From Alphaproteobacteria bacterium (GTDB lineage: Bacteria > Pseudomonadota > Alphaproteobacteria > SP197), in NCBI GenBank assembly GCA_965200215.1, contig OZ241369.1, forward strand, positions 1,027,787-1,091,786: a stretch of DNA of 64,000 nt, written 5' to 3'. The notes under the pieces were generated by a model, which saw only the letters and a program-made list of their open reading frames with translations, did not search any database and was not told where the DNA came from. Made by a program: the position numbers and the translations under genes. Positions 528 to 61,960 of this stretch are shown here, piece by piece; within the stretch, counting starts at the first letter, position 1; every line of letters starts with the position of its first letter.

Positions 528-625
528 CCCTCCTTCGAACGACCACCGGCGGTGGAAGGGCGGCGTTTATCCCCCCCCCCCCCCGGCGGTGTCAACGGGG
601 GGCGGGCAGTTTTTTCGGGGGTGGG

Positions 626-780
626 GGGTAGTGGCCGGTGGCCGGTGGCCAGTGGCTAGTGGTTAGTGAGAGCGGGGGGTGGGGGCGGTGCCTGGCGGCG
701 GGGGACGGTGCGTCGGCGGGCCTTCGGCCCGTTGCCGGCGGGACGCCGGCGCTCCCAGGGGGGCGCGGTTGGTAGGGGGT
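626..780. repeat. composite GC-rich repeat element (heptamer (A/G)GTGGYN array + GAGAGCGGG...GGTGCCTGGCGG + hairpin core GACGGGCC-n-GGCCCGTT / GCCGGCG-GGA-CGCCGGC)
   Basis: Sequence motif recurs at least 25 times in the window with the same order of modules. Confidence 0.8.
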
Positions 781-801
781 AGTGCCTGGCGGTGGTGCCT
801 T

Positions 802-1092
802 TCAGTTGGCGGCGGTTTCGTCGGCGGGTGCCTGGGCCAGGCGGTCGGGGCGGGCCAGGGCGCCGGCAACCGTGCCTTCGATGCGCGCCATGCGCTCGCG
901 CAACTCCGCCTGCCCCGCCTCGATGCGGACGAGGCGTTCCTCGACGCCGGCAAACCGCGTTTCGATGCGGGTTTCCAGGGCGGCAAAGCGCGCTTCCAGG
1001 GCGGCCATGTCGGCGCGCTGCCAGCCGAACAAGACGACGTTCATGGCCGCGATGGCGAAGAACAGGGTGATGAAGGGGTTGACCTTCGGCAT
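802..1092 (-). CDS. small membrane protein, N-terminal TM helix (PFITLFFAIAAMNVVLFGW) + C-terminal coiled coil with ARFAALETRIE hendecad repeats; paralog 1 of 5
   Basis: ORF track. Five near-identical paralogs (96-115 aa) that differ in hendecad repeat number. Conserved upstream sequence. Confidence 0.7.
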   Translation of the reverse strand: MPKVNPFITLFFAIAAMNVVLFGWQRADMAALEARFAALETRIETRFAGVEERLVRIEAGQAELRERMARIEGTVAGALARPDRLAQAPADETAAN

Positions 1093-1149
1093 GACGGTTT
1101 CCGCCAGGTTCGTTCGTCACCTTAGCGCATGGGGCGCGGGTGGCGGCGA

Positions 1150-1340
1150 GCGGTGCCTGGGTGGGGGGTGGTGCGTTGACCTTGCGGCCCGTTGCCGGCG
1201 GAACGCCGGCGCTTTGGCCAGTGGTCAGTGGCTAGTGGTCAGTGAGAGCGGGTGGTGGGGGCGGTGCCTGGGTGTGGGGCGGTCGGTGCGTTGGCGGCGG
1301 GACGCCGGCGCTCCCAGGGGGCGTGTGGCGGGCAGTGTGC
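1150..1340. repeat. composite GC-rich repeat element (two core copies flanking a heptamer array)
   Basis: Core hairpin motifs ...CGTTGACCTTGCGGCCCGTTGCCGGCGGAACGCCGGCGC... and ...GGCGGCGGGACGCCGGCGCTCCCAGGGGG... Confidence 0.75.
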
Positions 1341-1448
1341 CAGGGGCGCCGGGTGGTGGGTGGCGGGCGAAGCGCTCTTGCTTTTCGGCTTGCTCACGCT
1401 GCTGCCACAGGCTAAGCTGTTGCGACCGTCCCGCATGGAGCCATCGCC

Positions 1449-1712
1449 ATGACCCTTGCCGCCTTCGACACCCTCGCCGCCACCCGCGACCTGGAAGCGG
1501 CCGGCATGGAGCGGCGCCAGGCGGAAGCCGTCGCCGAGGTCACGGCACAGGCGGCCGTCACCGGCCATGGCGAGCTGGCCACCAAGGCGGACCTCGCCAC
1601 CGGTCTCGCCGATCTCAAAACCGCCATGGCGCGGCAGGAAGCGCGTATCTATCTGGCGCTGGTCGGGGTGGTCTTCGCCATCCTCGCCGCCGACAGGTTG
1701 CTGCCTTCGTAG
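1449..1712 (+). CDS. DUF1640-family coiled-coil protein with C-terminal TM helix (FDT...RQAEA...TKADL...LKTAMARQEARIYLALVGVVFAILAA)
   Basis: ORF track. Pattern matches my recollection of the DUF1640 (CCDC90-like) family. Paralog at 2644..2922 and a third copy at 22985..23206. Confidence 0.7.
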   Translation: MTLAAFDTLAATRDLEAAGMERRQAEAVAEVTAQAAVTGHGELATKADLATGLADLKTAMARQEARIYLALVGVVFAILAADRLLPS

Positions 1713-1932
1713 CAGGCTGCACCGGGGCGGCCCGTGGCCGCCGCAATGGAGCCCGCCGCCTTCGATACCCTCGCCGCCAGCCGCGGCCTGGAAGCGCCGG
1801 CATGGGGCGGTGCGTCGGCGGGCCTTGCGGCCCGTTTGCCGGCGGGACGCCGGCGCTCGGGGAAACGGTGCGTGGGCGGGCCTGACGGCCCGCCGGGGGG
1901 CGTGACGCTCGGTCGGTACTGGGGGGCGCCTT

Positions 1933-2280
1933 TCAGTTGGCGGCTTCGGCTTCGTCGGCGGGTGCCTGGGCCAGGCGGTCGGGGCGGGCCAGGGCGCCGG
2001 CAACCGTGCCCTCGATGCGCGCCATGCGCTCGCGCAACTCCGCCTGCCCCGCCTCGATGCGGACGAGGCGTTCCTCGACGCCGGCAAACCGCGTTTCGAT
2101 GCGGGTTTCCAGGGCGGCAAAGCGCGCCTCGATGGCGGCGAAGCGCTCCTCGATGCGGGTTTCCAGGGCGGAGAAGCGCGCTTCCAGGGCGGCCATGTCG
2201 GCCCGCTGCCAGCCGAACAAGACGACGTTCATGGCCGCGATGGCGAAGAACAGGGTGATGAAGGGGTTGACCTTTGGCAT
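1933..2280 (-). CDS. small TM/coiled-coil protein, paralog 2 (115 aa, extra hendecad repeats)
   Basis: ORF track; paralogy to 802..1092. Confidence 0.7.
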   Translation of the reverse strand: MPKVNPFITLFFAIAAMNVVLFGWQRADMAALEARFSALETRIEERFAAIEARFAALETRIETRFAGVEERLVRIEAGQAELRERMARIEGTVAGALARPDRLAQAPADEAEAAN

Positions 2281-2329
2281 GGCGGTTTCCGCCGGACGCG
2301 TTCGCTACCTTAGCGCATGGGGCGCAGGT

Positions 2330-2570
2330 GGCCAAGCGCGGCGGGCGATGGCGAGCAGTGCCTGGGTGGGGGTGGTGCGTTGACCTGGCGGCCCGTTGCC
2401 GGCGGGACGCCGGCGCTTTGGCCGGTGGCCGGTGGCCAGTGAGAGCGGGTGGTGGGGGCGGTGCCTGGGTGGGGCGGTCGGTGCGTTGGCGGCGGGACGC
2501 CGGCGCTCCCAGGGGGCGTGTGGCGGGCGGTGTGCCAGGGGCGCCGGGTGGTGGGTGGCGGGCGAAGTGG
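2330..2570. repeat. composite GC-rich repeat element
   Basis: Same module order as 1150..1340. Region 2300-2650 is a near-duplicate of 1100-1450. Confidence 0.75.
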
Positions 2571-2643
2571 TCTTGCTTCTCGGCTTGCTCACGCCGCTGC
2601 CACAGGCTAAGCTGTCGCGACCGCTCCGCATGGAGCCATCGCC

Positions 2644-2922
2644 ATGACCCTTGCCGCCTTCGACACCCTCGCCGCCACCCGCGACCTGGAAGCGGCCGGC
2701 ATGGAGCGGCGCCAGGCGGAAGCCGTCGCCGAGGTGACGGCACAGGCGGCCGTCACCGGCCATGGCGAACTGGCCACCAAGGCGGACATCAAGGACTTCG
2801 CCACCAAAGCCGACCTCGCCGATCTCAAGGCCGCCATGGCGCGGCAGGAAGCGCGCCTCTATCTGGCGTTGGTCGGGGTGGTCTTCGCCATCCTCGCCGC
2901 CGACAGGTTGCTGCCGTCGTAG
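2644..2922 (+). CDS. DUF1640-family coiled-coil/TM protein (paralog)
   Basis: ORF track; about 90% identical to 1449..1712. Confidence 0.7.
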   Translation: MTLAAFDTLAATRDLEAAGMERRQAEAVAEVTAQAAVTGHGELATKADIKDFATKADLADLKAAMARQEARLYLALVGVVFAILAADRLLPS

Positions 2923-3143
2923 CAGGTCGCGCCGGGGCGGCCCGTGGCCGCCGCAATGGAGCCCGCCGCCTTCGATACCCTCGCCGCCAGCAGCGGCCTG
3001 GAAACGTCGGCGTGGGGCGGTGTGGCAGAGGTGGTGCCTGGCGGCCCGTTGCCGGCGGGACGCCGGCGCTCGGGGAGCGGTGTGTGGGCGGGCCTGGCGG
3101 CCCGCCGGGGGGCGTGACGCTCGGTCGGTACTGGGGGCGCCCT

Positions 3144-3476
3144 TCAGTTGGCGGCGGTTTCGTCGGCGGGTGCCTGGGCCAGGCGGTCGGGGCGGGCCAG
3201 GGCGCCGGCAACCGTGCCTTCGATGCGCGCCATGCGCTCGCGCAACTCCGCCTGACCGGCCTCGATGCGGACGAGGCGTTCCTCGACGCCGGCGAACCGC
3301 GTTTCGATGCGGACCATGCGCTCGCGCAGCTCCACCTGCCCGGCCTCGATGCGGTTGAAGCGCGCCTCGATGCGGGTTTCCAGGGCGGTCATGTCGGCCC
3401 GCTGCCAGCCGAACAGGCCGATGTTCATGGCCGCGATGGCGAGGAACAAGGTGACGAGGGGGTTGATCTTCGGCAT
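3144..3476 (-). CDS. small TM/coiled-coil protein, paralog 3 (divergent: MPKINPLVTLFLAIAAMNIGLFGW)
   Basis: ORF track. Confidence 0.7.
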   Translation of the reverse strand: MPKINPLVTLFLAIAAMNIGLFGWQRADMTALETRIEARFNRIEAGQVELRERMVRIETRFAGVEERLVRIEAGQAELRERMARIEGTVAGALARPDRLAQAPADETAAN

Positions 3477-3688
3477 GACGGTTTCCGCCGGGCGCGTTCG
3501 CTACCTTAGCGCATGGGGCGCGGGTGGCCAAGCGCGGCGGGTGGCGGCGAGCGGTGCCTGGGTGGGGGGTGGTGCGTTGACCTTGCGGCCCGTTGCCGGC
3601 GGGACGCCGGCGCTCGGGGAGCGGTGTGTGGGCGGGCCTGGCGGCCCGCCGGGGAGCGTGACGCTCGGTCGGTACTGGGGGGCGCCCT

Positions 3689-3982
3689 TCAGTTGGCGGC
3701 TTCGGCTTCGTCGGTGGGCGCCTGGGCCAGGCGGTCGGGGCGGGCTAGGGCGCCGGCAACCGTGCCCTCGATGCGCGCCATGCGCTCGCGCAACTCCGCC
3801 TGCCCTGCCTCGATGCGGACGAGGCGTTCCTCGACGCCGGCAAACCTCGTTTCGATGCGGGTTTCCAGGGCAATGAAGCGCGCTTTCAGGGCAGCCATGT
3901 CGGCCCGCTGCCAACCGAACAAGACGACGTTCATGGCCGCGATGGCGAAGAACAGGGTGATGAAGGGGTTGACCTTTGGCAT
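3689..3982 (-). CDS. small TM/coiled-coil protein, paralog 4
   Basis: ORF track. Confidence 0.7.
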   Translation of the reverse strand: MPKVNPFITLFFAIAAMNVVLFGWQRADMAALKARFIALETRIETRFAGVEERLVRIEAGQAELRERMARIEGTVAGALARPDRLAQAPTDEAEAAN

Positions 3983-4242
3983 GACGGTTTCCGCCGGGCG
4001 CGTTCGCTACCTTAGCGCATGGAGCGCGGGTGGCCAAGCGCGGCGGGTGACGGCCGGTGGCTAGTGGCTAGTGGTCGGTGAGAGCGGGAAACGGGGGCGG
4101 TGCCTGACGGCGGGCGTGTGGTGCGTTGGCGGGCCTGGCGGCCCGTTTGCCGGCGGGATGCCGGCGCTCGGGGAGCGGTGTGTGGGCGGGCCTGGCGGCC
4201 CGCCGGGGGGCGTGACGCTCGGTCGGTACTGGGGGGCGCCCT

Positions 4243-4566
4243 TCAGTTGGCGGCGGTTTCGTCGGCGGGTGCCTGGGCTAGGCGGTCGGGGCGGGCCAGG
4301 GCGCCGGCGACCGTGCCTTCGATGCGCGCCATGCGCTCGCGCAGTTCCGCCTGACCGGCCTCGATGCGGACGAGGCGTTCCTCGACGGCGGCAAACCGCG
4401 TTTCGATGCGGGTTTCCAGGGCGGCAAAGCGCGCCTCGATGGCGGCGAAGCGCTCCTCGATGCGGGTTTCCAGGGCGGCCATGTCGGCCCGCTGCCAGCC
4501 GAACAAGACGACGTTCATGGCCGCGATGGCGAAGAACAGGGTGATGAAGGGGTTGACCTTTGGCAT
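4243..4566 (-). CDS. small TM/coiled-coil protein, paralog 5
   Basis: ORF track. Confidence 0.7.
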   Translation of the reverse strand: MPKVNPFITLFFAIAAMNVVLFGWQRADMAALETRIEERFAAIEARFAALETRIETRFAAVEERLVRIEAGQAELRERMARIEGTVAGALARPDRLAQAPADETAAN

Positions 4567-4599
4567 GACGGTTTCCGCCGGGCGCGTTCGCTACCTTAG

Positions 4600-4830
4600 C
4601 GCATGGGGCGCGGGTGGCCAAGGGTGGCGGGTGGCGGCCGGTGGCTAGTGGTTAGTGGTTAGTGGGAGCGGGGGGTGGGGGGTGGGGGCGGTGCCTGGCG
4701 GCGGGATGCTCGGTCGGTGCCTGGAGGCGGGGCGCCGGCGCTCGGGGGGATGGTGTGTGGGCGGGCCGGACGGCCCGCCGGGGGACGTGTGGCTGACGGC
4801 GGTGCCCGGGGGTGCGCTGGGTGGTGGGTG
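4600..4830. repeat. composite GC-rich repeat element
   Basis: Heptamer array + core motifs. Confidence 0.7.
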
Positions 4831-6059: not shown

Positions 6060-6314
6060 GGGGTAGTGGATAGTGGATAGTGGCCAGTAGCCAGTGGTCG
6101 GTGGCCAGTGGGAGCGGGTGGTGGAGAGGGTGCCCGGCGGTGGGGGGAGTGCGTTGACGGGCCTACGGCCCGTTTGCCGGCGGGACGCCGGCGCTCCCAG
6201 GGGGCGGGACGCCTGGGGGTGGTGGCAAACGGTGCCTGGCCGTTTTCGAACCTAGGCGCTACCGCAAAGATCCAGCGCCACCCGCTCTCACCATCCACTA
6301 ACCACTAGCCACTA
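6060..6314. repeat. composite GC-rich repeat element (heptamer arrays + core + GGCAAACGG...TTCGAACC terminal module), interrupted by IS
   Basis: Motifs as elsewhere. The heptamer array continues at 7165-7200 on the other side of the IS. Confidence 0.7.
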
Positions 6315-7162
6315 GGCTCAGGACCCATAAACGGTCTTGAGTATTGTTGTGAGAAGTGGTTCAAGCTCTTCCAGATATAGAGGAGGCTATCATGTCTGAC
6401 CACCACTTCTGGTTATCGGATGCCCAGTTCGCCCGCATCCAGCCGCTGTTGCCCAACAAGGTGCGCGGTGTGCCCCGGGTCGATGACCGGCGCGTCATCT
6501 CGGGCATCATCCACGTCATTCGCAACGGGCTGAGGTGGCGTGACGCGCCGCCTGAATACGGTCCTCACAAGACCCTCTACAACCGCTTCGTGCGCTGGAG
6601 CAGGGCTGGCGTATTCGGACGCATCTTCGAGGCTCTGGCTGCCGACAGCCGGGCGTCGGGGACGGTGATGATCGACGCCACCTACCTGAAGGCTCACCGG
6701 ACTGCGGCCAGCCTGCTCAAAAAGGGGCTTTTCCGCGATGTATCGGGCGTAGCCGAGGCGGCTTGAACTCGAAGCTGCACGCGGTTTGCGACGGCGATGG
6801 CAAGCCCTTGATCCTGCTGCTGACCGAGGGGCAGGCCAGCGACTACCGGGGTGCCGAGGCCATCTTGCCGGCAGTGCCGGACGCCGATGTCCTGATCGCC
6901 GACAAGGGCTATGACAGCGACCGTTTCCGCCAAGCCCTGGCCGAACGGCGCATCGAGACATGCATCCCCGGACGGGCGAACCGCAAGAGGCCGGTAGAAT
7001 ATGACCCAAAGCTATACCAGCGGCGAAACCTCATCGAACGGATGTTCGGAAGGCTCAAGGACTGGAGGCGCATCGCCACACGATACGACCGATGCGCGCA
7101 CACCTTCTTTAGCGCTATCTGCATCGCCGCCACCGTCATCTTCTGGTTATGAGTCCTGAGCC
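6315..7162 (+). mobile_element. IS5-family insertion sequence (IS427-group-like), about 848 bp, imperfect terminal IRs GGCTCAGGACCCATAAACGG / GGCTCAGGACTCATAACCAG (rc), flanked by TA duplication, inserted into a heptamer array
   Basis: Terminal inverted repeats found by eye. Two overlapping transposase ORFs. Flanks ...CCACTA|IS|TAGCCACTGG. Confidence 0.8.
6392..7152 (+). CDS. IS5-family transposase, orfA (6392..6766) and orfB (to 7152) joined by a programmed -1 frameshift near CTC-AAA-AAG (about 6716-6724)
   Basis: ORF track (6356..6766 and 6763..7152). orfB frame is -1 relative to orfA and open back to the A-run. AGGAGG RBS directly before ATG 6392. DDE_Tnp_1-type sequence in orfB. Confidence 0.8.
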
Positions 7163-7236
7163 TAGCCACTGGCCAGTGGCGACCGGCCACCGGCGACTGT
7201 TGACAGGGCTGGCGGGGGCGGCCTAACCCCGGCGCC

Positions 7237-8595
7237 ATGGTGGAAGCTGTGCGCGTGATCGGCGGCGGGCTGGCCGGGACGGAGGCGGCCTGGCAGATCG
7301 CGCGCGCCGGGCTGCCGGTGGTGCTGGAGGAGATGCGCCCGCAACGCTCCACCCCCGCCCACCGGACCGGGCTGCTGGCGGAGCTGGTCTGTTCCAACTC
7401 CTTCCGTTCCGACGACGGCGACAACAACGCCGTCGGCCTGCTGCACGAGGAGCTGCGGCGGGCCGGTTCCGTCGTGATGGCGGCGGCCGACCGCCACCGG
7501 GTGCCGGCGGGAAGCGCGCTGGCGGTGGACCGGGAGGGCTTCGCGGCGGCGGTGGAGGCGGCGGTGGCGGGCGAGAGGTCGATCGCGGTGGCCCGGCGCG
7601 AGGCGCGGCGCCTGCCCGATGCCGGCCCGGCCATCGTCGCCACCGGGCCGCTGACCTCCGACGCGCTGGCGGCCGACATCCTCCGGGCCACGGGGGCGGA
7701 GGCGCTGGCCTTTTTCGACGCCATCGCGCCCATCGTGCACCGCGACAGCATCGATTTCGACGTCGCCTGGATGCAGTCGCGCTACGACAAGGCGGGGCGC
7801 CCCGGCGACGAGGCGGCCTATATCAATTGCCCGCTTTCGAGGGACGCCTACGACGCTTTCGTGGACGGGCTGGTGGCGGCCGAGGAGGCCGGGTTCCGGG
7901 AGTGGGAGCGGGAGACGCCCTATTTCGAGGGCTGCCTGCCGATCGAGACCATGGCCAGGCGCGGGCGCAACAGCCTGCGTTTCGGCCCCATGAAGCCGGT
8001 GGGCCTCACCGACCCCGGAAGCGGCGAGCGGCCCTTCGCCGTGGTGCAGCTGCGCCAGGACAACGCGCAGGGGACGCTGTTCAACATGGTGGGCTTTCAG
8101 ACCAAGCTGAAGCACGGCGAGCAGCTGCGCCTGTTTCGCACCGTGCCCGGCCTGGGCGAGGCCCGTTTCGCGCGGCTGGGCGGGATGCACCGCAACACCT
8201 TCATCAACAGCCCGGCGCTGCTGGATGGGGCGCTGCGGCTGCGGCGGCGCCCGCATCTGCGCTTCGCCGGCCAGATCGCTGGCGTCGAGGGCTATGTGGA
8301 AAGCGCCGCCATCGGCCTGCTGGCCGGGCGCTTCGCGGCGCTGGAACGGCAGGGGCGCGCCATCCATCCACCGCCGGCGACCACCGCCCTGGGGGCGCTG
8401 CTGAACCACATCACGGTGGGCGCCGACGCCAGCAGCTTTCAGCCCATGAACTGCAATTTCGGGCTGTTCCCGCCGCCGGACCCGCGCCTGCGCGGCAAGC
8501 AGCGGCGCGCCTCCTTCGCCATCCGCGCCCGCGCCGATCTCGGCGCCTGGCTGCAACGGCACGAAGGGCTGTTTGCGGGAGGGGCTGGGGGTTAG
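7237..8595 (+). CDS. trmFO: methylenetetrahydrofolate--tRNA-(uracil54-C5)-methyltransferase TrmFO
   Basis: ORF track. N-terminal FAD motif [12 protein letters not shown]. Conserved [14 protein letters not shown] region. Confidence 0.9.
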
Positions 8596-8599
8596 GGGC

Positions 8600-9135
8600 C
8601 GGTGGCCGGTGGCCAGTGGTTAGTGGTTAGTGGCTAGTGGTCAGTGGCTAGTGGTGCGGGTGGTGTGTGGCGGTGCCTGGCGGTGGGGTGTGGTGCGTTG
8701 ACGGGCCTTGCGGCCCGTTTGCCGGCGGGACGCCGGCGCTCCCAGGGGGCGCGTGTGGCTGACGATGGTGCCTGGGGCAGGTGGCTAGTGGTCAGTGGCC
8801 GGTGGCTAGTGGCCAGTGGTGCGGGTGGTGTGTGGCGGTGCCTGGCGGTGGGGTGTGGTGCGTTGACGGGCCTTGCGGCCCGTTTGCCGGCGGGACGCCG
8901 GCGCTCCCAGGGGGCGCGTGTGGCTGACGATGGTGCCTGGGGCAGGTGGCTAGTGGTCAGTGGCCGGTGGCTAATGGCCAGTGGTGCGGGTGGTGTGTGG
9001 TGGTGCCTGGCGGTGGGGACGGTGCGTGGGCGGGCCTTCGGCCCGTTTGCCGGCGGGACGCCGGCGCTCGGGGAAACGATGTGTGGGCGGGCCTGACGGC
9101 CCGCCGGGGGGCGTGACGCTGGCGGCGGTGCCTGG
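8600..9135. repeat. three tandem copies of the composite repeat element (about 178-bp units duplicated at 8644-8820 and 8822-9000, plus a third core)
   Basis: Near-identical tandem blocks, each ending in heptamer arrays. Confidence 0.75.
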
Positions 9136-9157
9136 GGGCGACGAGGCGGTGGGGCTT

Positions 9158-10194: not shown

Positions 10195-10540
10195 GTGGTG
10201 GGGGTGTGCCTGGCGGTGGTTAGTGGCTAGTGGCTAGTGGCTAGTGGCCAGTAGCCAGTGGTCAGTGGCCAGGTGCCAGTGGTGCGAGCGGTGCCTGGCG
10301 GTGGGGGTGGGGCGTTGACGGGCCTTTGGCCCGTTTGCCGGCGGGACGCCGGCGCTCCCAGGGGGCGGGACGCTCGGTCGGTGCCTGGGGGCGGGACGCT
10401 GGCGGGGGTGCCTGGTGGTGGGCGGGGGTGCGTGGGCGGGCCGGACGGCCTGGCGGGGGCTTGTGGCTGGCGGCGGTGCCTGGGGGCGTGTGGCTGGCGA
10501 TGGTGGCTGGGGGTGGGTTTACTTCGCCTTTGGGGGCGGC
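10195..10540. repeat. composite GC-rich repeat element
   Basis: Heptamer array 10200-10290 + core. Confidence 0.7.
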
Positions 10541-11259: not shown

Positions 11260-12477
11260 GTGTTCGATCAGGGCGTGACATCGCGCGAGCGGGTGCTGTG
11301 CCTGATCGCCCTGATCGGGGCGCTGTCGGTGGTGGCGACCACCAGCTCGCTGACCTGGCCGATCCTGGCCGAATCGCTGCGCAACCGGGGCTTCGGCGAG
11401 GCCGCCATCAGCCTCAACGCGGCCGCCCAGTTCGCCGGCATGGTGGTGGTGGCGCTGGCCGCCACGGCCGTCATCCCGCGGCTGGGCTTCTTCCGCTCCA
11501 TCGCGCTGGGGTGCGCCCTGGTGGCGGCGATGCTGATCCTGCTGCCGCTGTGGCGCGACTATCAGGCCTGGTTCGCGGTCCGCTTTCTGCTGGGGGTGGG
11601 CAATTCGCTGCTGTTCACCGCCGGCGATACCTGGATCAACCAGATCCTCGACGACCGGGTGCGTGGGCGCTGGCTCGGCATCTACAGCACCGTCGGCATG
11701 GCCGGCTGGGCGGTGGGGCCGATCATCGGCTCGCAGCTCGACCCGGAGACCTTCTGGCCCTTTCTGTGCGGGCTGGGCGCGGTGGCCATGGGCGTGGCGC
11801 TGCTGCTGCCGGCGCGGCGCATCCATGTCGGCTTCGCTGTCGAGGACAAGCGCGGCGCCGGGCCGGGGGCGCTGCTGCCGGTGTTCCTGGCCGCGCCCAC
11901 GGTGCTGCTGTCCTCGGCCATGTTCGGGATCCTGGAAGGGGGGATGCAGTCCTTCGCGCATCTCTACACCATGGACGTGCTGGGCCAGGAGTTCCGCCAG
12001 ACCGGCTATGCCGTCATCTGGGTGGGGTCGCTGGGGGCGGTCTTCTTCCAGTATCCGGCGGGCTGGCTGGCCGACAAGGTGGACCGGGGCTGGCTGCTGG
12101 TGGCCTGCGTGTTCGTGCTGGCGGCCGCCATCGCCGCCTTTCCGGCGCTGCTGGCCGGCGGCACGGGGCCGTGGTGGGCGCCGCAGGGCCTGCTGCTGTG
12201 GGGGCTGGTGTCGCTGTGGGGCGGCACCATGGGGGCGATCTTCACGGTCGGCATCACGCTGCTGGGCGAACGCTTCCGAGCCGTCGAGCTGGTGGCGGCC
12301 AACGCCGTGTTCTCGCTGCTGTTCGGCATCGGCGGCATGGCCGGGCCGGTGGCGGTGGGCACGGCGATGGACGGCTTCGGCCCGGCCGGCTTTCCGGCGA
12401 CGCTGGCAGCCGCCACCCTGCTCTACGGCGCCTTCGCCGCCTGGCGCCAGGCGACGCGGAGGCGGCGGGCTGGGTAG
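11260..12477 (+). CDS. MFS transporter
   Basis: ORF track. About 12 predicted TM segments. Typical MFS loop motif DRVRGRWLG. Confidence 0.8.
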   Translation: MFDQGVTSRERVLCLIALIGALSVVATTSSLTWPILAESLRNRGFGEAAISLNAAAQFAGMVVVALAATAVIPRLGFFRSIALGCALVAAMLILLPLWRDYQAWFAVRFLLGVGNSLLFTAGDTWINQILDDRVRGRWLGIYSTVGMAGWAVGPIIGSQLDPETFWPFLCGLGAVAMGVALLLPARRIHVGFAVEDKRGAGPGALLPVFLAAPTVLLSSAMFGILEGGMQSFAHLYTMDVLGQEFRQTGYAVIWVGSLGAVFFQYPAGWLADKVDRGWLLVACVFVLAAAIAAFPALLAGGTGPWWAPQGLLLWGLVSLWGGTMGAIFTVGITLLGERFRAVELVAANAVFSLLFGIGGMAGPVAVGTAMDGFGPAGFPATLAAATLLYGAFAAWRQATRRRRAG

Positions 12478-12800
12478 TGGGTGGCCGGTGGTCGGTGGTC
12501 AGTGGCTAGTGGTTAGTGAGAGCGGGTGGTGGGGGTGGTGCCTGGCGGTGGGGTGTGGTGCGTCGGCGGGCCTTCGGCCCGTTGCTGGCGGGACGCCGGC
12601 GCTCGGGGAACGGTGTGTGGGCGGGCCTGGCGGCCCGCCGGGGGGCGGGACGCTCGGTCGGTGCCTGGGGGCGATGGGTGGCTGGCGGTGGTGCCTGGGG
12701 GCGATGGGTGGCTGGCGGTGGTGCCTGGGGGCGATGGGTGGCTGGTGGCGGTGCCTGGGGGCGATGGGTGGCTGGTGGCGGTGCCTGGTGGTGAAGGGGG
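12478..12800. repeat. composite repeat element with internal 30-bp tandem repeat (GTGCCTGGGGGCGATGGGTGGCTGGCGGTG x4.3, 12661..12795)
   Basis: Direct inspection. Confidence 0.8.
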
Positions 12801-13701: not shown

Positions 13702-13756
13702 GGTGGTCGGTAGCCAGTGGTCGGTAGCCAGTGGTCGGTGACGGGAGGAGGGAAGG

Positions 13757-14932
13757 ATGACGCTGGCGGAACTGACGGGCGCGCTTCGCGCCCTGGCCGA
13801 AGGCCCCTTCGAGGAAGCCCGCGCGGCGCCGCCCGGCATCTACAGCTCGCCGCAATTCCTGGACCTGGAGCAGCGCCACATCTTCGCGAAGGAATGGATC
13901 TGCGCCGGGCGGGCCGAGACGCTGGCGAAGGCGGGCGACTATCTCACCATGGAGATCGCCGGGCAGCCGGTGCTGGTCGTCAAGGGGCGCGACGGCACCA
14001 TCCGCGCCTTCTCCAATGTCTGCCTGCACCGCATGAGCGTGCTGCTGGAAGGGCGCGGCAACCGCAGGACCGTCTCCTGCCCCTATCACGCCTGGAGCTA
14101 CGACCTCGACGGGCGGCTGCTGGCCGCCCCTCACATGGAGAAAAGCCCCGCCTTCCGCCGCCGCGACTACCGGCTGCCCCAACTGCGCTGCGAGCTGTGG
14201 GAGGGCTGGATCTACGTCTCGCTCGACCCCGACATCGAGCCGGTGGCAAGGCGCCTGCGGGCGGTGAAGGAGACGGTGACCGGCCGCTACCGTTTCGAGG
14301 ACTACCGGGAGGCGTGGCGCGAGGAGCGCGTCTGGAACGCCAACTGGAAGATCCTGGCCGAGAATTTCATGGAGAGCTACCACCTGTTCCGGCTTCACCG
14401 CGCCACGGTGGGGCCGCAATCGCGGGTGGACGAGATGCGGATGCCGGCCGGCGGGGCCGCCTTCAACCACCACTGGATCACCAAGGAATCGGATTTCACG
14501 CTGGCCAACGCCCATCCCGACTGCGGCTATCTGGAGGGCGAATGGCGGCGCACCACGGCGCTGATCACCATCTATCCCAGCCACATGATCACGCTGACGC
14601 CGGGCTATTTCTGGTATCTGGTGCTGCAACCCGACGGCAGCGAGCGGGTGCGGATCCTCTATGGCGGCGGCATGGCGCCCGACTTCGCCGCCGACGCCAG
14701 GGGCGCCGAGCATATCGGGGCCGCCAGGGCGCTGCTGGACGCGGTCAACGAGGAGGACCGGGTGGGCGTGGAGGCGGTCATGCGCGGCATGAAGGCCAGG
14801 CTCGCCCGCCCCGGCCATCTGAGCCATCTGGAGCGGCCCAATTTCGAGTTCTGGCAATATATCGCCCGCCGGGTGGCCGGCAGCGAGGCTGGGCCGGGGG
14901 CTAGTGGCCAGTGGCCGGGGGCTAGTGGTTAG
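13757..14932 (+). CDS. Rieske (2Fe-2S) ring-hydroxylating oxygenase alpha subunit family protein
   Basis: ORF track. Rieske motif CLHR...CPYHAW. Last approximately 7 codons and stop lie inside a heptamer array. Confidence 0.8.
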   Translation: MTLAELTGALRALAEGPFEEARAAPPGIYSSPQFLDLEQRHIFAKEWICAGRAETLAKAGDYLTMEIAGQPVLVVKGRDGTIRAFSNVCLHRMSVLLEGRGNRRTVSCPYHAWSYDLDGRLLAAPHMEKSPAFRRRDYRLPQLRCELWEGWIYVSLDPDIEPVARRLRAVKETVTGRYRFEDYREAWREERVWNANWKILAENFMESYHLFRLHRATVGPQSRVDEMRMPAGGAAFNHHWITKESDFTLANAHPDCGYLEGEWRRTTALITIYPSHMITLTPGYFWYLVLQPDGSERVRILYGGGMAPDFAADARGAEHIGAARALLDAVNEEDRVGVEAVMRGMKARLARPGHLSHLERPNFEFWQYIARRVAGSEAGPGASGQWPGASG

Positions 14933-15135
14933 TGGTTAGTGGTTAGTGGTTAGTGGTTAGTGGTTAGTGAGAGCGGGGGTGGGGGTGGTGCCTGGCGGTG
15001 GGCGGTGGTGCGTTGACGGGCCTGCGGCCCGTTGCCGGCGGGACGCCGGCGCTCCCAGGGGGCGTGACGCTGGCGGCGGTGCCTGGGGGGCGCGGGTGAC
15101 GGACGGCGGTGGCTGGGGGGCGCGGGTGGCCGGAT
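14880..15135. repeat. composite GC-rich repeat element
   Basis: Heptamer array (GGTTAGT x6) + core. Confidence 0.7.
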
Positions 15136-15157: not shown

Positions 15158-16126
15158 GTGACGAAGCCGGTGGTGTTCGTCACCCGCCGCCTGCCCGAAG
15201 CGGTGGAAGAGAGGCTGCGGCGCGACTGGCGGGCGCGCCTCAACGGCAGCGACCGCCTGCTGGGCGGCGACGAGATCGTGGCCGGCAGCCGCGGCGCCGA
15301 CGCCATCCTCGCCTGCCCCAGCGAGCGGCTGACGGGCGAGATCGTCCGCCGCCTCGACGCCAGCGTGAAGATCATCGCCACCTTTTCGGTGGGCTTCGAG
15401 CATATCGACATCGCGGCGGCGGGCGAGCGCGGCATCGTCGTCACCAACACCCCCGACGTGCTGACCGACGCCACGGCCGATATCGCCATGCTGCTGATCC
15501 TGGGGGCCGCCAGGCGCGCCCCCGAGGGCCAGGCGATGCTGCGCGAGGGGCGCTGGGGCGTCTGGACGCCCACCGCCCTGCGCGGCGTCCACGTCACCGG
15601 CAGCCGCCTGGGCATCCTGGGCATGGGCAGGATCGGCCAGGCGCTGGCGAGGCGGGCGCGCGGCTTCGCCATGGAGGTGCACTATCACAACCGCCGCCGC
15701 CTGGCGGCGGACCGGGAGGGGGGCGCCCGCTTCCACCCCAGCCTCGACGGCCTGCTGGCGGTCAGCGACATCCTCTCCATCCACTGCCCTTCGACGCCCG
15801 AGACCGCCGGCCTGATCGACCGGCGGCGCATCCGGCAGCTGCCGCAGGGGGCGATCGTGGTCAACACGGCGAGGGGCGACATCGTCTGCGACGAGGCGCT
15901 GATCGCGGCGCTGCGAGGCGGGCGGCTCAGCGCCGCCGGCCTCGACGTCTATGCCGGCGAGCCGGACCTGCATCCCGGCTATCTGGGGCTGGGCAACGCC
16001 TTCCTGCTGCCGCATATGGGCAGCGCCACGATGGCGACCCGCGACGCCATGGGCTTTCGCGCCCTGGACAATCTGGACGCCTTCTTTGCCGGGCGGGAGG
16101 CGTTGGATCGGGTGGGTGGGGGTTAG
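15158..16126 (+). CDS. D-isomer-specific 2-hydroxyacid dehydrogenase (glyoxylate/hydroxypyruvate reductase-like)
   Basis: ORF track (GTG start). NAD motif GILGMGRIGQA and catalytic region. Confidence 0.8.
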   Translation: MTKPVVFVTRRLPEAVEERLRRDWRARLNGSDRLLGGDEIVAGSRGADAILACPSERLTGEIVRRLDASVKIIATFSVGFEHIDIAAAGERGIVVTNTPDVLTDATADIAMLLILGAARRAPEGQAMLREGRWGVWTPTALRGVHVTGSRLGILGMGRIGQALARRARGFAMEVHYHNRRRLAADREGGARFHPSLDGLLAVSDILSIHCPSTPETAGLIDRRRIRQLPQGAIVVNTARGDIVCDEALIAALRGGRLSAAGLDVYAGEPDLHPGYLGLGNAFLLPHMGSATMATRDAMGFRALDNLDAFFAGREALDRVGGG

Positions 16127-16129
16127 TGG

Positions 16130-16460
16130 GTGGGGGTTAGTGGCTAGTGGTTAGTGGCCGGTGGCCGGTGGCTAGTGGTTAGTGGTTAGTGGGAGCGGGT
16201 GGTGGCGGCGGTGCCTGGCGGTGGGGGCGGTGCGTCGGCGGGCCTCCGGCGCTCCCAGGGGGGCGCGGGTGGCACCGGCGGTGCCTGGGGGCGGGCTTCG
16301 CCGGTGGTGCCTGGCGGCGGACGCCGGCGCTCGGGGGAATTTCGTGCGCGGGCGGGCCTTGCGGCCCGCCGGGGGGCGGGACGCTCGGGCGGTGCCTGGC
16401 GGCGGGATGCTGGCGCTCCCAGGGGGCGGTGGCACCGGCGGTGGCCGGGGGTGCCGCTAG
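16130..16460. repeat. composite GC-rich repeat element
   Basis: Heptamers + two cores. Confidence 0.7.
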
Positions 16461-17362: not shown

Positions 17363-17374
17363 GGGTGGTGGTTA

Positions 17375-17625
17375 GTGGATAGTGGGCGGTGGTCGGTGGC
17401 TAGTGGCCGGTGGCCGGTGGCTAGTGGTTAGTGGGAGCGGGTGGTGGCGGTGGTGCCTGGCGGTGGGCTTGTGGTGCGTTGACGGGCCTTCGGCCCGTTT
17501 GCCGGCGGGACGCCGGCGCTCCCAGGGGGCGGGACGCTCGGCCGGTGCTTGGGGGGTGGCGGGTGGCTGATGGTGGTGCCTGGCGGTGGGGGCGTTGGTG
17601 GTGCCGGGGGGTGGGGCGCTGAAAA
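17375..17625. repeat. composite GC-rich repeat element
   Basis: Motifs. Confidence 0.7.
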
Positions 17626-18196: not shown

Positions 18197-18320
18197 TGAG
18201 AGCGGGGGGTGGGGGCGGTGCCTGGCGGTGGTGGGAGTGCGTTGACGGGCCTGCGGCCCGTTTGCCGGCGTGACGCCGGCGCTCCCAGGGGGCGCGGGTG
18301 CCTGGCGGTCTGTGGGCGGC

Positions 18321-19331: not shown

Positions 19332-19384
19332 GCCCCCCTCCCCTGCGGCGGCCGGTGAGGATACGCATGGCGGCGGTGGGGCGC

Positions 19385-19560
19385 CAGGGTGGGGGTGGCC
19401 GGTGGCTAGTGGCTAGTGGCTAGTGGTTAGTGAGAGCGGGGGGTGGGGGTGGTGCCTGGCGGTGGGCGTGTGGTGCGTTGACAGGCCTTTGGCCCGTTTG
19501 CCGGCGGGACGCCGGCGCTCCCAGGGGGCAGGACGCTGGCGGCGGTGCCTGGGGCGTGGA
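19385..19560. repeat. composite GC-rich repeat element
   Basis: Motifs. Confidence 0.7.
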
Positions 19561-19629
19561 GCGCCGGATGGGGGCGTGTTAGCCTTGCCGGGCGCTGCCC
19601 AGTGGCGGCGGGAGAGCGGCGGTGGGGCG

Positions 19630-55311: not shown

Positions 55312-55439
55312 CGCCCGTCGCCCCCGGCAGTATGGCGCCGCCGCCGGACGGACGGCAAGGCGGGCGCGGCATGGGAAAGCCCGGCGGGCGGCGCCGGTCG
55401 AGGATGTGGCAGTGCCTGGCGACGAGGGGCGGTGCGTCG

Positions 55440-55640
55440 ACCTTCGGCCCGTTTGCCGGCGGGACGCCGGCGCTTTGACTAGTGGCCAGTGGTTAGTGGC
55501 TAGTGGTCAGTGAGAGCGGGAAACAGGGGGTGGTGCCTGGCGGCGGGCGTGTGGTGCGTTGGCGGGCCTGCGGCCCGCCGGGGGCGTGTGGCTGGCGATG
55601 GTGCCCGGGGGTGGCGGCGAACGGCACCTGCCCATCCTCG
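55440..55640. repeat. composite GC-rich repeat element
   Basis: Motifs. Confidence 0.7.
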
Positions 55641-55764
55641 AACCGAGACACCGCCCGCTCCTGCGGCGGCTTGCCGGGCGGGCGGGGCCTGCCTATGCTT
55701 GCGGGCGCGGAGGCCGCGGTGCGGCAGCCGCCGTCTTCCCATGCCATCAGCTCCCAACCGGCCC

Positions 55765-59065: not shown

Positions 59066-59115
59066 CGGCAGCGCGCCGTGAACGGCCCGCCCGGCCGTGA
59101 ACGATCCGGCGCGGC

Positions 59116-60030
59116 TCAGTCCTGCGGCGGCGGCTTCAGGCCATCCAGCAGCACCGCCAGGTTTTCGTCGCGCCAGCGTTCCAGCTCGTCCATGGTCAGA
59201 TGGCCGTACATGGCCTCCACCTCGCCGATCAGCCGCTGCCGGGCCTCCTCGCCGCGCCGCCAGCCGAAATGGTCGATCATGTGGCGGATGCCGCCCTTGC
59301 CGCCGCCCAGATGGTAGCAGGTCGCCGGCCCGGCGAAGGCCCAGCGCAGGCCGGGGCCGCTGGCGATGGCGGTGTCGATGTCGCGCCAGTCGCAGATGCC
59401 GCCCGCGACCAGGGCGGCCGCCTCCTCGAAAACGACGTGCTGCAGGCGGTTGGCGACATAGGATTCGATCTCCTTCTTCAGGCGCAGCACCCGGCGCCCC
59501 AGGCTCTCGTAGAAGGCGCAGGTCCAGTCCAGGACCGCGGGATCGGTGGCCTCGCCGCCCACCACCTCGACCAGCGGCAGCAGATAGCTGGGCGCGAAGG
59601 GATGGCCGATCGCCACCCGCTCGGGATGGCGGCAGCCGGATTGCAGGCGCGACGGCAGGAAGGTGGACGACGAGCTGGCCAGCACGGTGTCGGCGGGGCA
59701 GGCGGCGTCCAGGCGGGCGAACAGCTCGATCTTCAGCTCCTCCCTGTCGGGCGCGCTCTCCTGCACGAACTGGGCGCCCGCCACCGCCTCCTCCGGGCCG
59801 GCGGCAAAGCGCAGGCGCCGGCGGCTGGCGCCGGGGGCCAGCCCCAGCCTTTGCAGCCACGGCCAGGCCTGGTCGACGATGGCGCGCGCCTGCCGCTCGG
59901 CGTCGGGGGCGGGGTCGCTGATCGCCACCTCCTTGCCCGCCGCCAGGAACACCGCCGCCCAGCCGGCGCCGATGGTGCCGCCGCCCACGCAGGCGACGCG
60001 CTCAACCTCGTCCGCTCGCGGTCTCGCCAT
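59116..60030 (-). CDS. 3-hydroxyacyl-CoA dehydrogenase family protein (L-carnitine dehydrogenase-like)
   Basis: Internal ATG (60028-60030) of ORF 59116..60075. NAD motif VGGGTIGAGWA. Confidence 0.7.
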   Translation of the reverse strand: MARPRADEVERVACVGGGTIGAGWAAVFLAAGKEVAISDPAPDAERQARAIVDQAWPWLQRLGLAPGASRRRLRFAAGPEEAVAGAQFVQESAPDREELKIELFARLDAACPADTVLASSSSTFLPSRLQSGCRHPERVAIGHPFAPSYLLPLVEVVGGEATDPAVLDWTCAFYESLGRRVLRLKKEIESYVANRLQHVVFEEAAALVAGGICDWRDIDTAIASGPGLRWAFAGPATCYHLGGGKGGIRHMIDHFGWRRGEEARQRLIGEVEAMYGHLTMDELERWRDENLAVLLDGLKPPPQD

Positions 60031-61015
60031 GGCTCTCCTCCTCCGCCAGCCGCCGCAGCAGATGGCCCTGAACATAATCCGCCACGCCCTCTTCCAGGCC
60101 GGTGAAGGGCCGCCGGTAGCCCGCGCGGCGCAGGCGCGCCATCCCGGCCTGGGTGAAATACTGATAGCGCCCCTTCAGCGCCGCCGGCATGTCGATGAAG
60201 TCGATGGCGGGCGGGCGGCCCAGGGCGGCGAAGACGGCATGGGCCAGCTCCAGCCAGCTGCGGGCGCGGCCGGTGCCCAGGTTGAAGATGCCGGCGACAT
60301 CCGGGCGCCCCAGCAGCCACAGCACGGCGGCGACGCAATCTTCGACGTGGACGAAATCGCGCTTCTGCCCGCCATCGGCGATCCCGGGCCGTTCCGAGCG
60401 GAACAGCCGCAGCGCCCCGCCCGCCCGCAGCGCCGGAACGCTCTTGGCGATGACGCTGCGCATCTCGCCCTTGTGGTCCTCCCAGGGGCCGTAGACGTTG
60501 AAGAAGCGCAGCCCGGCCCAGTGCGGCGGGGTGGGGCGGCCGGCGTCGCGCTCGCGCACCGCCAGGCGGTCGAACAGCAGCTTGCCGGCGCCGTAGGGCG
60601 TGATGGGGCGCAGCCTGGCCATGGCCTGCTGCGAGGGGTCGTCATCGAAGCCCTGGCCGCCGTCGCCATAGACCTGGGCCGAGGAGGCCCAGATCAGCGG
60701 CACGCCGGCCCCGGCGCACCAGTCCCACAGCATCAGCGGCAGCCAGACATTGGTGCGCAGGACCAGGTCGACATCGGTCTCGGAGGTGGAGGTGACGGCG
60801 CCCATGTGGATCACCGCCTCCAGGCCCCGCCGGCCCCGCAGCCAGGCCATGAGCTCTTCGGCCGGCAGCCGGTGGGCGATGGCCGCCGGTGGGATCGGGG
60901 CGCCCCGCGCGGCCTCGGGATGGCGGTCGCACAGGGCGAGGCGGGCGCCCCGGCGGGCCAGGGCGGCGGCGATGTTGGAGCCGATGAAGCCGCCGGCGCC
61001 GGTCACCAGGATCAA
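60002..61015 (-). CDS. hldD: ADP-L-glycero-D-manno-heptose-6-epimerase
   Basis: Strong similarity to E. coli HldD blocks (RFFNVYGPWEDHKG, GIFNLGTGRARSW, LKGRYQYFTQA). Proposed TTG start overlapping the gmhA stop (TTGA) with GGAGG RBS. The ORF-track GTG start at 61063 is the alternative. Confidence 0.8.
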   Translation of the reverse strand: MILVTGAGGFIGSNIAAALARRGARLALCDRHPEAARGAPIPPAAIAHRLPAEELMAWLRGRRGLEAVIHMGAVTSTSETDVDLVLRTNVWLPLMLWDWCAGAGVPLIWASSAQVYGDGGQGFDDDPSQQAMARLRPITPYGAGKLLFDRLAVRERDAGRPTPPHWAGLRFFNVYGPWEDHKGEMRSVIAKSVPALRAGGALRLFRSERPGIADGGQKRDFVHVEDCVAAVLWLLGRPDVAGIFNLGTGRARSWLELAHAVFAALGRPPAIDFIDMPAALKGRYQYFTQAGMARLRRAGYRRPFTGLEEGVADYVQGHLLRRLAEEESHGETASGRG

Positions 61016-61605
61016 GGCGCGGCCTCCGCCACCAGGCCCAGCTCGATCTCGATGGCGGCGCACAGCATCTGCCCCAGCAGCAGGTGCATCTCCTGGATGC
61101 GGGCGGTGGCGTGGTCGGGGACGATCAGCAGCGGCCGGGCGAGGCCAGTCAAGGCGCCACCATCGCGCCCGGCCAGCGCCGCCGCCACCATGCCGTTCTC
61201 GCGGGCGAAGCGCAGGGCGGCCAGCACGTTGGCGCTTCTGCCGGAGGTGGTGAGGCCCAGGGCCACATCGCCCGGCCGCCCCAGCGCCTCCAGCTGGCGG
61301 GCGAAGACGCGCTCGAAGCCCAGGTCGTTGCCCGCCGCCGTCAGGGCCGAGGCGTCGGCGGTCAGCGCCAGGGCGGCGATGGCCCGCCGGTCGCGGGCGT
61401 AGCGCACGCTGAGCTCGCTCGCCAGGTGCTGGGCGTCGCCGGCGCTGCCGCCATTGCCGAAGAAGAACAGCCGCCCGCCCGCCTTCAGGCTGCCGACGCA
61501 GACCTCGACCAGGCGGCAGAACGGCGCCAGCAGCGCCTGCCTGGTGGCCCGCAGCGCCGCCTCGTGGCGGTCGAACTCGGCGGCGTAGAAACGGGCGAGG
61601 TCCAT
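61012..61605 (-). CDS. gmhA: D-sedoheptulose 7-phosphate isomerase (SIS domain)
   Basis: Internal ATG (61603-61605) of ORF 61012..62493; GNGGSAGDAQH and SGRSANV blocks like E. coli GmhA. Confidence 0.85.
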   Translation of the reverse strand: MDLARFYAAEFDRHEAALRATRQALLAPFCRLVEVCVGSLKAGGRLFFFGNGGSAGDAQHLASELSVRYARDRRAIAALALTADASALTAAGNDLGFERVFARQLEALGRPGDVALGLTTSGRSANVLAALRFARENGMVAAALAGRDGGALTGLARPLLIVPDHATARIQEMHLLLGQMLCAAIEIELGLVAEAAP

Positions 61606-61689
61606 GGCGCTTCCCGGCGGCGTCCCCGCATAGCCCGCGCGCCGGGACCGTTCAAGCCGGGAAGGGGCAGTGTCCCGGTTTGAAGTTTC

Positions 61690-61960
61690 GAGGCTGCGGG
61701 CCGGCGCTTTGGCTTGTGGCCGGTGGTCAGTGGTCGGTAGCCAGTGGCCAGTAGTCGGTGGTCGGTGGGAGCGGGAAATGGCGGTGGTGCCTGGCGGTGG
61801 GGGGCGGTGCGTCGGCGGGCCTTGCGGCCCGTTGCCGGCGGGACGCCGGCGCTCGGGGAACGGTGTGTGGGCGGGCCGGACGGCCCGCCGGGGGCGGGAC
61901 GCTCGGTCGGTGCCTGGTGGCGGCAAACGGCACCTGCCCATGTTCAAACCGGGGTGCCGG
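61690..61960. repeat. composite GC-rich repeat element (most complete copy: heptamers + GAGCGGG module + three stem-loops + GGCAAACGGCACCTGCCCATGTTCAAACC terminal module)
   Basis: Motifs. Confidence 0.75.

Follow-up and report, generated by a model that had tools for sequence, protein, structure and literature searches.

A REP-like hairpin mosaic, probably tied to RAYT transposases and overlaid with heptamer microsatellites, in an alphaproteobacterial genome

Intergenic gaps in a 64,000-nt stretch of the genome of an Alphaproteobacteria bacterium (lineage SP197; GenBank assembly GCA_965200215.1, contig OZ241369.1, positions 1,027,787 to 1,091,786; G+C 72%; here termed the window) carry a modular repeat element in which tandem 7-nt units lead into a core of short GC-rich hairpins. 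We propose, with a probability of roughly 70%, that the core is a mosaic of repetitive extragenic palindromic (REP) sequences of the kind found in bacterial interspersed mosaic elements (BIMEs), that it is tied to a REP-associated tyrosine transposase (RAYT), and that it is overlaid with heptamer microsatellites resembling the short tandemly repeated repetitive (STRR) sequences of cyanobacteria. REPs are palindromes of 20–40 nt with a GTAG or GTGG tag 0–2 nt 5′ of the stem (PMC6006769); as described in PMC6006769, PMC2817692 and PMC3733652, they often form inverted doublets (BIME or REPIN), make up to approximately 1% of the E. coli chromosome and flank its one RAYT. The RAYT binds the single-stranded REP, not its complement, and cuts at a CT located 5′ or 3′ of the REP (PMC8266576). 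Cyanobacterial STRRs are hairpin-forming tandem repeats of 7 bp and of unknown function (PMC2670836).

The canonical order of modules is heptamers (H), junction (J), G-rich box (B), hairpin 1 (hp1), hairpin 2 (hp2), B, hairpin 3 (hp3), B, an optional terminal module (T) and an optional inverted J′-H′; in the module strings given below, H5 denotes five heptamer units, b is used beside B and a prime marks inversion. The array unit is (A/G)GTGG(C/T)(C/T/A); arrays mix variants of it that differ at three positions and all keep GTGG, and the units close to the junction are more A+T-rich. The junction AGTG(A/G)GAGCGGG occurs 15 times in the window, and GGTGCCTGG, contained in the G-rich linker B, 54 times. 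hp1 consists of GT(T/C/G)G followed by (A/G)CGGGCC-loop-GGCCCG(T), hp2 of GCCGGCG-GGA-CGCCGGC with the 3′ tail GCTCCCAG, and hp3 of GTGG followed by GCGGGCC-loop-GGCCCGC. All three have perfect stems of 6–8 bp and loops of 3–4 nt, and there are about 60 intergenic instances, a count over the window and its relatives together rather than over a genome. Within the window, the exact hp2 sequence GCCGGCGGGACGCCGGCGCTC was found 17 times, CGGGCC-loop-GGCCCG stems of the hp1/hp3 type 29 times (12 of them in the GGCGGGCC-loop-GGCCCGCC form of hp3), and T as two exact and four loose matches. Both recurrent motifs GGTGCCTGG and CTCCCAGG contain, window-wide, the Dcm-type methylation site CCWGG.

These elements are far above chance. 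Runs of three RGTGGYH units with no more than one mismatch were counted 126 times in the window versus 0.00 in 100 dinucleotide shuffles, and the heptamer array and modules reported by a first-pass annotation of this DNA were all present where it had placed them. Its estimate of at least 25 copies agrees with our map, which holds 28 heptamer-led units and 3 core-only clusters. The arrays, each of 2 to 20 units, number 31 on the + and 5 on the − strand. Together, the elements cover approximately 9.05 kb, or 14% of the window, and their share rises to 24% over its first 37 kb, with approximately 0 expected by chance. Nearly every intergenic gap was said to be occupied; this holds for positions 600–37000 (about 25 of the approximately 31 gaps, including every gap longer than about 100 bp) but not for 37–64 kb, where there are only two copies (55408–55644 and 61715–61950). 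Likewise, all three of the hairpin types that had been noted exist, but the full trio is present in 12 copies only. The core alone folded no better than shuffled sequence (z = −0.88), so fold energy is no evidence for the short hairpins and their exact recurrence is the evidence; long DNA hairpins were obtained on folding the two copies that have inverted heptamer arms (6065–6315, z = −5.6; 25225–25594, z = −8.1).

The link to a RAYT comes from sister strains. In L120, a relative with 96% nucleotide identity, the spacer between a major facilitator superfamily (MFS) gene and rpmG, which in the window holds the element at 12480–12792, contains a Y1_Tnp gene of 202 codons flanked, all in one orientation, by J-B-hp1-hp2 on the left and H-J-B-hp1-hp2-hp3 on the right. 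Its product scored 86.4 bits against the NCBIfam model NF047646 'REP-associated tyrosine transposase' (cutoff 80), matched Pfam Y1_Tnp too, and reached 23 bits against the NCBIfam IS200 model (cutoff 55). The best and only relative in the PDB was 4ER8, TnpAREP of E. coli, in an alignment that spans the NHVH (HUH) and YIHENP motifs, and there were more than 7,700 homologues at E < 1e-20, many of them listed in their sources as 'REP element-mobilizing transposase RayT'. A second RAYT (86% amino acid identity) lies at a different locus in L249 with the same flanking arrangement; both genes have their stop codon inside heptamers. L121 retains a deleted RAYT pseudogene at the L120 site. An associated RAYT- or IS200-like transposase, which the first-pass annotation had considered worth seeking elsewhere, was thus found in L120 and L249, flanked by the modules. 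A RAYT flanked by its own repeats (a REPtron) is present in L120, L249, L085, L039, L080 and L024, and not in the window.

The last four of these loci came from a genome-collection scan with the hp2 21-mer, which matched exactly on at least 115 contigs of metagenome-assembled genomes (MAGs; L001–L115) from Acidobacteriota/Thermoanaerobaculia, Verrucomicrobiota, Planctomycetota, Proteobacteria and others. Among the matches listed, the 3′ flank GCTCC(C)AG is kept and the 5′ flank is not, and the hairpins often occur in inverted pairs. Homologues with 79, 53, 39 and 37% identity to the L120 RAYT were found by tblastn beside hp2 hairpins in four listed loci (by handle, L024:1100–2000, L039:100–1200, L080:2700–3687 and L085:200–1200). 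Stem variants show compensatory changes (GCCGGCG, GGCGGCG, GCGGGCG and GCCGGC-AAGAT) with the loop (GGA/AGA) and the 3′ GCTCC kept. Given these neighbours in several phyla and the compensated stems, hp2 is thus probably the REP cognate to a clade of RAYTs distributed across phyla. The occurrence of the GCTCCCAG-tailed hairpin by RAYT homologues in Acidobacteriota, Verrucomicrobiota and Proteobacteria also points to a REP type that is widely shared and has its tag on the 3′, not the 5′, side, and we found no description of such a type in the literature searched. Whole elements had no match in a plasmid collection, in either near or distant mode, the hp1–hp2 junction had 0 matches in metagenomes, and literature searches on the repeat strings and on STRR unit strings returned nothing relevant. 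A single match to the heptamer/J junction among viral contigs, in DNA of 44% GC with no other module, was set aside as chance.

The TrmFO protein of the window had no exact match in a sequence look-up; homologues were located at 99% identity on a short metagenome scaffold and at 87% on a 2.82-Mb circular MAG contig (L116). In L116, a 21-kb syntenic locus with approximately 88% nucleotide identity has none of the modules; its spacers measure 16–250 bp versus 280–1240 bp in the window, and the site orthologous to the triplication at 8580–9139 is 26 bp long. An exact look-up of ribosomal protein L33 gave ten further syntenic loci, and the relatives fall into a 99% clade (L117, L119, L122, L124, L127 and L128) and a 96% clade (L120, L121, L123, L125 and L126). 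With elements in two clades and none in L116, the repeat family is young and specific to this lineage. Among the 99% strains, the presence of the hp1-hp2 block varies at several spacers, with deletion endpoints at short direct repeats such as TGACGG, and L119 has tandem units of 3 × 117 bp. In two of these strains (L124:3186–3645 and L128:2277–3378), other DNA lies behind the Rieske gene, where the window has a 2-hydroxyacid dehydrogenase gene; the sequences part at the heptamer/J junction, so the element seems to sit where a rearrangement or an insertion took place. Such repeats break short-read assemblies, and the relatives are mostly scaffolds of 3–11 kb.

Strain comparison also separates the heptamer arrays from the hairpin core, which the first-pass annotation had taken for one composite element. 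In the 96% clade the left end of the element has only 2–4 degenerate units (GGTGGAT-AGTGGGA-GCGGG), and the 99% clade has long arrays. The spacer between the pentapeptide gene and the Rieske gene is a 40-nt native sequence in the 96% strains and, in every 99% strain, a pure array with no hairpin, of 5, 7, 7, 10, 10 and 13 units in differing order (5 units in the window, 13702–13736). Array-only sites thus exist in some 99% strains, hairpins with 2–4 degenerate units exist in the 96% relatives, and both layers are absent from L116. Heptamer number, a comparison that the first-pass annotation had proposed, differs in every 99%-identical strain. A metagenome scan for 4.5 copies of GTGGYYR matched at least 120 contigs (L129–L248, JGI; 33–70% G+C) unrelated to the window, with arrays often starting at a stop codon. 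Among the matches listed, some at 33–45% GC have several different heptamers side by side, in cyanobacterial style, 15 of 120 loci have an inverted partner array and only 2 of 140 arrays have a REP tag close by; no shared neighbour gene and no RAYT was found on the at least 120 contigs listed.

The core motifs of the window lie on the + strand (54:0, 17:0 and 19:1 for three motif counts), so the observation that copies occur in both orientations fails for the core and stands for heptamer arrays with the short GTGAGAGC junction, which form the right arms of 2–3 foldback copies (6293–6313 with 7164–7198, 25525–25594 and 27398–27446). The core keeps this strand in every gene context (9 cases between two + genes, 5 between two − genes, 6 divergent and 5 convergent), and its orientation is therefore independent of transcription. 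Because Y1 enzymes use the single-stranded DNA (ssDNA) of the lagging-strand template (PMC6006769), and given this independence, the simplest cause of the one-strand placement would be a strand-specific, fork-coupled process. Most of the local GC skew comes from the elements, whose own skew is +0.34: over 1–37 kb the local value is +0.10 raw versus +0.03 with elements masked, and beyond 37 kb it is approximately 0 after masking; such element-dominated skew could mislead origin prediction.

Sequences that follow hp2 diverge right behind its GCT, where they continue as CCCAGGGGG (n = 16), as CGGGGA and then hp3 (n = 7) or as TTGGCC and heptamers (n = 3), and from these three continuations we read the CT 3′ of hp2 as a putative joining point. 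In the mechanism that we propose, a RAYT would bind the folded hairpins in ssDNA, cut at the CT just 3′ of hp2 and rejoin, and this cutting and rejoining would copy, stack and reshuffle the modules. If one strand is the substrate and the fork exposes ssDNA mainly on one template, every copy would come to lie on one strand. Arrays at REP sites would have been seeded by the two heptamer-like units of the left end of the element, and would have expanded and turned over fast in this sub-lineage, the simplest routes being slipped-strand mispairing and conversion between arrays.

Several observations weigh against this proposal. The window has no RAYT gene (tblastn), and for this strain we infer rather than observe the enzyme. 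Hairpin differences between strains look like microhomology deletions at TGACGG repeats, not clean excisions. Replication direction is not fixed by a masked GC skew as small as that given above. hp2 is without a 5′ GTAG and has its conserved flank, GCTCCCAG, on the 3′ side, and the substrate strand of the enzyme is for this reason not assignable. REPs in the window never form inverted doublets (REPINs), nor do they alternate as in BIMEs. Last, slippage alone leaves unexplained both the pure array that replaced a 40-nt native spacer and the invariance of GTGG while three unit positions vary.

A further reading, which we regard as unlikely, is that the heptamer arrays are made or maintained by a dedicated activity and are not passive slippage products. 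In its favour, the array core GTGG (variant GTAG) is the guide or tag tetranucleotide of RAYTs, the RAYT gene ends inside an array in both the L120 and L249 REPtrons, and native spacers have given way to de novo arrays at a divergence below 1%. In one form of it, the arrays may be iterated RAYT guide sequences that either arise through rounds of cutting and rejoining or act as landing pads for REP modules; in a broader form, the GTGG-heptamer arrays found on contigs of 33–70% GC may be an unrecognised pan-bacterial class of strand-polar repeats with its own machinery.

We are similarly doubtful that the elements, instead of being mobile DNA, act in cis as DNA or RNA signals under host selection, that is, signals like Chi or the FtsK-orienting polar sequences (KOPS), nucleoid-protein or gyrase arrays, or terminators or mRNA stabilisers, with a strand bias due to selection relative to replication. 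Uniform orientation independent of transcription would fit such signals, as would the polar skew of G-rich motifs (GNTGGTGG 51:12, GCTGGTGG 18:4, G4-type motifs 17:5), and known REPs and BIMEs bind host proteins and affect mRNA (PMC2817692). However, the same spacers are without elements in the 88% relative, which has the same genes, and the elements are hypervariable among the 99% strains and overwrite gene 3′ ends. The KOPS-type motif GGGNAGGG showed no skew in the window (8:13). A scan for intrinsic T-tract terminators found 6 sites in the window versus 4.9 expected, none of them in the elements, and a terminator role of the hairpins was dropped on this result. Rfam searches of the window, at gathering and at E-value thresholds, returned only tRNA and noise and no family for the elements.

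That the whole composite is one miniature inverted-repeat transposable element (MITE) or foldback transposon, with most copies truncated, seems very unlikely. Its ends would be the inverted arms of heptamers and GTGAGAGC, or T/T′ (GGTTTGAA...TTCAAACC), and a DDE transposase would act in trans. Like MITEs and foldback elements, the copies are non-autonomous, 100–400 bp long and intergenic; those at 6065–6315 (with 7162–7198) and 25225–25594 have the inverted heptamer/J arms and the long-hairpin folds reported above, those at 55395–55645 and 61675–61953 are bounded by inverted repeats of 10–11 nt, and the inverted partner arrays in metagenomes point the same way. Unlike in MITEs, an inverted end of any kind is found in only 4–5 of about 31 copies, the modules occur independently in close relatives, and the uniform orientation is unexpected from cut-and-paste DDE transposition. 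No target-site duplication was seen when filled sites were compared with empty ones, and no insertion sequence (IS) with matching ends was found; the only DDE element of the window, of the IS5 family (6316–7161), has ends of unrelated sequence (GCTCAGGAC) and itself interrupts an array. The 'MITE/REP-like' label of the first-pass annotation therefore keeps its REP half, with a RAYT linked in sister strains, and loses its MITE half.

Still less probable is that no dedicated enzyme is at work today, the repeats being relics that only local duplication, unequal crossing-over and conversion have spread and homogenised, with the neighbouring RAYT as a passenger: tandem units (8580–9139; those of L119), segmental duplicates (1100–1420 versus 2330–2620), the microhomology deletions that can explain between-strain differences, and a RAYT that is a pseudogene in L121 and has no counterpart at that site in the window would fit, but the elements fill more than 25 separate intergenic sites, some inside the horizontally acquired island at 19384–33045, the hairpins are near-identical at all sites, and RAYT adjacency recurs in six independent loci and several phyla.

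The arrays also rewrite gene ends. They carry stop codons in nearly all six frames, and seven genes end at a TAG within or at the edge of an array, with C termini that differ from those of the L116 orthologues: TrmFO (8593–8595), the MFS transporter (12475–12477, in the leading degenerate unit of the element at 12480–12792), the Rieske oxygenase (14930–14932), the 2-hydroxyacid dehydrogenase (16124–16126), the DUF3565 protein (18194–18196), the Res subunit (22663–22665) and the FGE-sulfatase-domain protein (34915–34917). Arrays make up 2.5% of the sequence and contain 38 of the 57 CTAG sites in the window. The IS5-family element (6316–7161; 846 bp, with DUF4096 and DDE_Tnp_1 open reading frames (ORFs) and 9-bp ends GCTCAGGAC) sits in such a CTAG, duplicated, within an inverted heptamer array; L117 and L119 lack it here. 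Two arrays in back-to-back inversion, H5 and H7′ (27363–27446; 84 nt together), are read in frame in a long DNA-methylase ORF (25651–28944) and, unlike other arrays, are almost stop-free.

Individual copies, all with + strand cores, begin at the left of the window with an H5-J-B-hp1-hp2-B-b unit flanked by two − strand genes (630–835). At 1152–1313, b-hp2 is followed by TTTGGCC-H3-J-B-hp2, a heptamer-led unit fused right behind the GCT of an older hp2, of which 2398–2508 (hp2, then TTTGGCC-H2-J-b-hp2) is a segmental duplicate. The core-only clusters, without heptamers, are hp1-hp2-hp3-b (1812–1969), B-hp2-hp3-b (3030–3177) and b-hp2-hp3 (3553–3654), and they are followed by H3-J-B-hp1-hp2-hp3-b (4056–4276) and H5-J-B-B-hp3-B (4633–4813). 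In the foldback copy H7-J-hp1-hp2-T-b-J′-H3′ (6065–6315), the right inverted arm is split by the IS5-family element, and the rest of the arm (H5′) resumes past it on the − strand at 7162–7198. Reported earlier as tandem copies at 8600–9135, the array at 8580–9139 is a tandem triplication (TRF period 165, 2.8 copies, 94% matches) of H11-B-hp1-hp2-b, H6-B-hp1-hp2-b and H6-B-hp1-hp2-hp3-B. A divergent promoter gap contains B-H8-B-J-hp1-hp2-B-B-hp3-B (10202–10487), and the spacer that holds the RAYT gene in L120 contains H5-J-B-hp1-hp2-hp3-B (12480–12792). At the right end of this last copy, the 30-nt subrepeat CGGTGGTGCCTGGGGGCGATGGGTGGCTGG recurs over 4.4 copies with 97% identity (12655–12788) and is missing at the orthologous site in L119 and L122. 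Beyond the five-unit pure array at 13702–13736, H10-J-B-hp1-hp2-B (14896–15090) and H12-J-B-B-B-hp3-B (16111–16403) supply the Rieske and dehydrogenase stop codons from within their arrays, and H10-J-B-hp1-hp2-B-B (17367–17612) precedes H7-J-B-hp1-hp2-B (18146–18309), which has the DUF3565 stop codon at its array/J boundary.

Several further copies fall within a genomic island (19384–33045; 58–69% G+C) that is missing from L116 and encodes a type III Res subunit and methylase, two AAA ATPases and a retropepsin-like ORF; one small ORF of the island looks, by eye from its translation, four-helix-bundle-like. Copies in the island belong to a divergent subfamily in which hp2 is degenerate and non-palindromic. 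They comprise H5-J-B-hp1-hp2-b (19394–19552), H10-J-B-hp1 with H3-J-B (22657–22844; subfamily type, Res stop codon within the array), H5-J-B-hp1-(degenerate hp2)-B (23219–23373; subfamily type), the foldback copy H11-J-B-hp1-hp3-B-J′-H10′ (25225–25594), the array pair in the methylase ORF, a lone array of four units (28158–28185), H20-J-B-hp1-hp2 with the longest array (30285–30508) and two tandem units, H2-B-hp1-hp2 and H4-B-hp1-hp2-hp3-B-B (32634–32978). To the right of the island lie H6-B-hp1-hp2-B followed by H4-B (34902–35157; FGE-sulfatase stop codon within the array) and H5-J-B-T (36738–36847), the partial version noted earlier at 36730–36850. The two copies of the second half are B-hp2 followed by TTTGACT-H4-J-B-hp3-T (55395–55645), bounded by the imperfect inverted repeat GGTCGAGGATG ... 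CATCCTCGAACC (55395–55405/55632–55643), and T′-(partial hp2)-TTTGGCT-H8-J-B-hp1-hp2-hp3-B-T (61675–61953), bounded by CCGGTTTGAA ... TTCAAACCGG (61675–61684/61944–61953); these repeats of 10–11 nt suggest a MITE-like shell with the T module at one end. Among the neighbouring genes, seven small coiled-coil ORFs with weak CCDC90-like/DUF1640 matches run along 800–4600 on both strands, with an element in every gap between them; the run has internal repeats of 42/84 nt (3203–3370) and the segmental duplication noted above.

A one-strand, RAYT-linked family at such density, with none in the 88% relative, makes a natural experiment on the invasion speed of repeats, on the link of their spread to the replication fork and on the rewriting of gene ends, with seven array-derived stop codons.

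The first-pass annotation could match the element to no named family; its core belongs with the REP/BIME-RAYT systems, and its arrays are similar to the STRR heptamers of cyanobacteria. Like the E. coli REP-BIME, Pseudomonas REPIN and Stenotrophomonas SMAG systems, the core consists of short GC-rich extragenic hairpins in high copy, combines several hairpin types and linker motifs in mosaics, has a Y1 HUH gene flanked by the repeats, and is lineage-specific in content and variable between strains. As for the REP tag, GTGG abuts the hp3 stem 5′ and hp1 is preceded by GTTG, GTCG or GTGG, and hp2 is preceded by GTT(T)G, with no conserved 5′ flank across phyla and the conserved GCTCCCAG 3′. The CT just 3′ of hp2, where sequences diverge, is a putative RAYT cleavage site. 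Unlike in REPINs and BIMEs, all hairpins of the window run head-to-tail on one strand, with no inverted core doublet and no alternating orientation; hp2 is shared across phyla, not species-specific as REPs are; and heptamer microsatellites are joined to the left end of the core. REP/RAYT systems are usually described as inverted doublets making up approximately 1% of a genome (up to approximately 1% in E. coli; PMC6006769), whereas the density here is 14–24% of the DNA, or a quarter of 37 kb. We therefore file the core as working like, and linked to, a REP/RAYT system, and, as it has no inverted or alternating REPs, not as a REPIN.

The arrays share with cyanobacterial STRRs tandem 7-bp units, an intergenic position, a variable number of units (2–20) and inverted pairs, of which there are three here. 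STRR units reportedly include CCCCAGT, TTGGTCA and CAACAGT (Mazel et al., 1990), and the unit here would differ from them in its invariant GTGG core; the arrays differ also in their alphaproteobacterial host of 72% GC, in their mixtures of unit variants, in abutting REP clusters and in giving genes their stop codons. IS200/IS605 elements (IS608 and ISDra2) have a related Y1 HUH enzyme, recognise subterminal hairpins in ssDNA and show a strand-specific, replication-coupled behaviour that gives orientation bias; unlike these, the repeated units here contain no ORF, and the tyrosine motif is of the RAYT type, Y---NP, not Y---Q. The REP/RAYT kind of core is thus known, and what is unusual is its strict co-orientation, its head-to-tail layout, its extreme density with very recent spread and its fusion with hypervariable heptamers.

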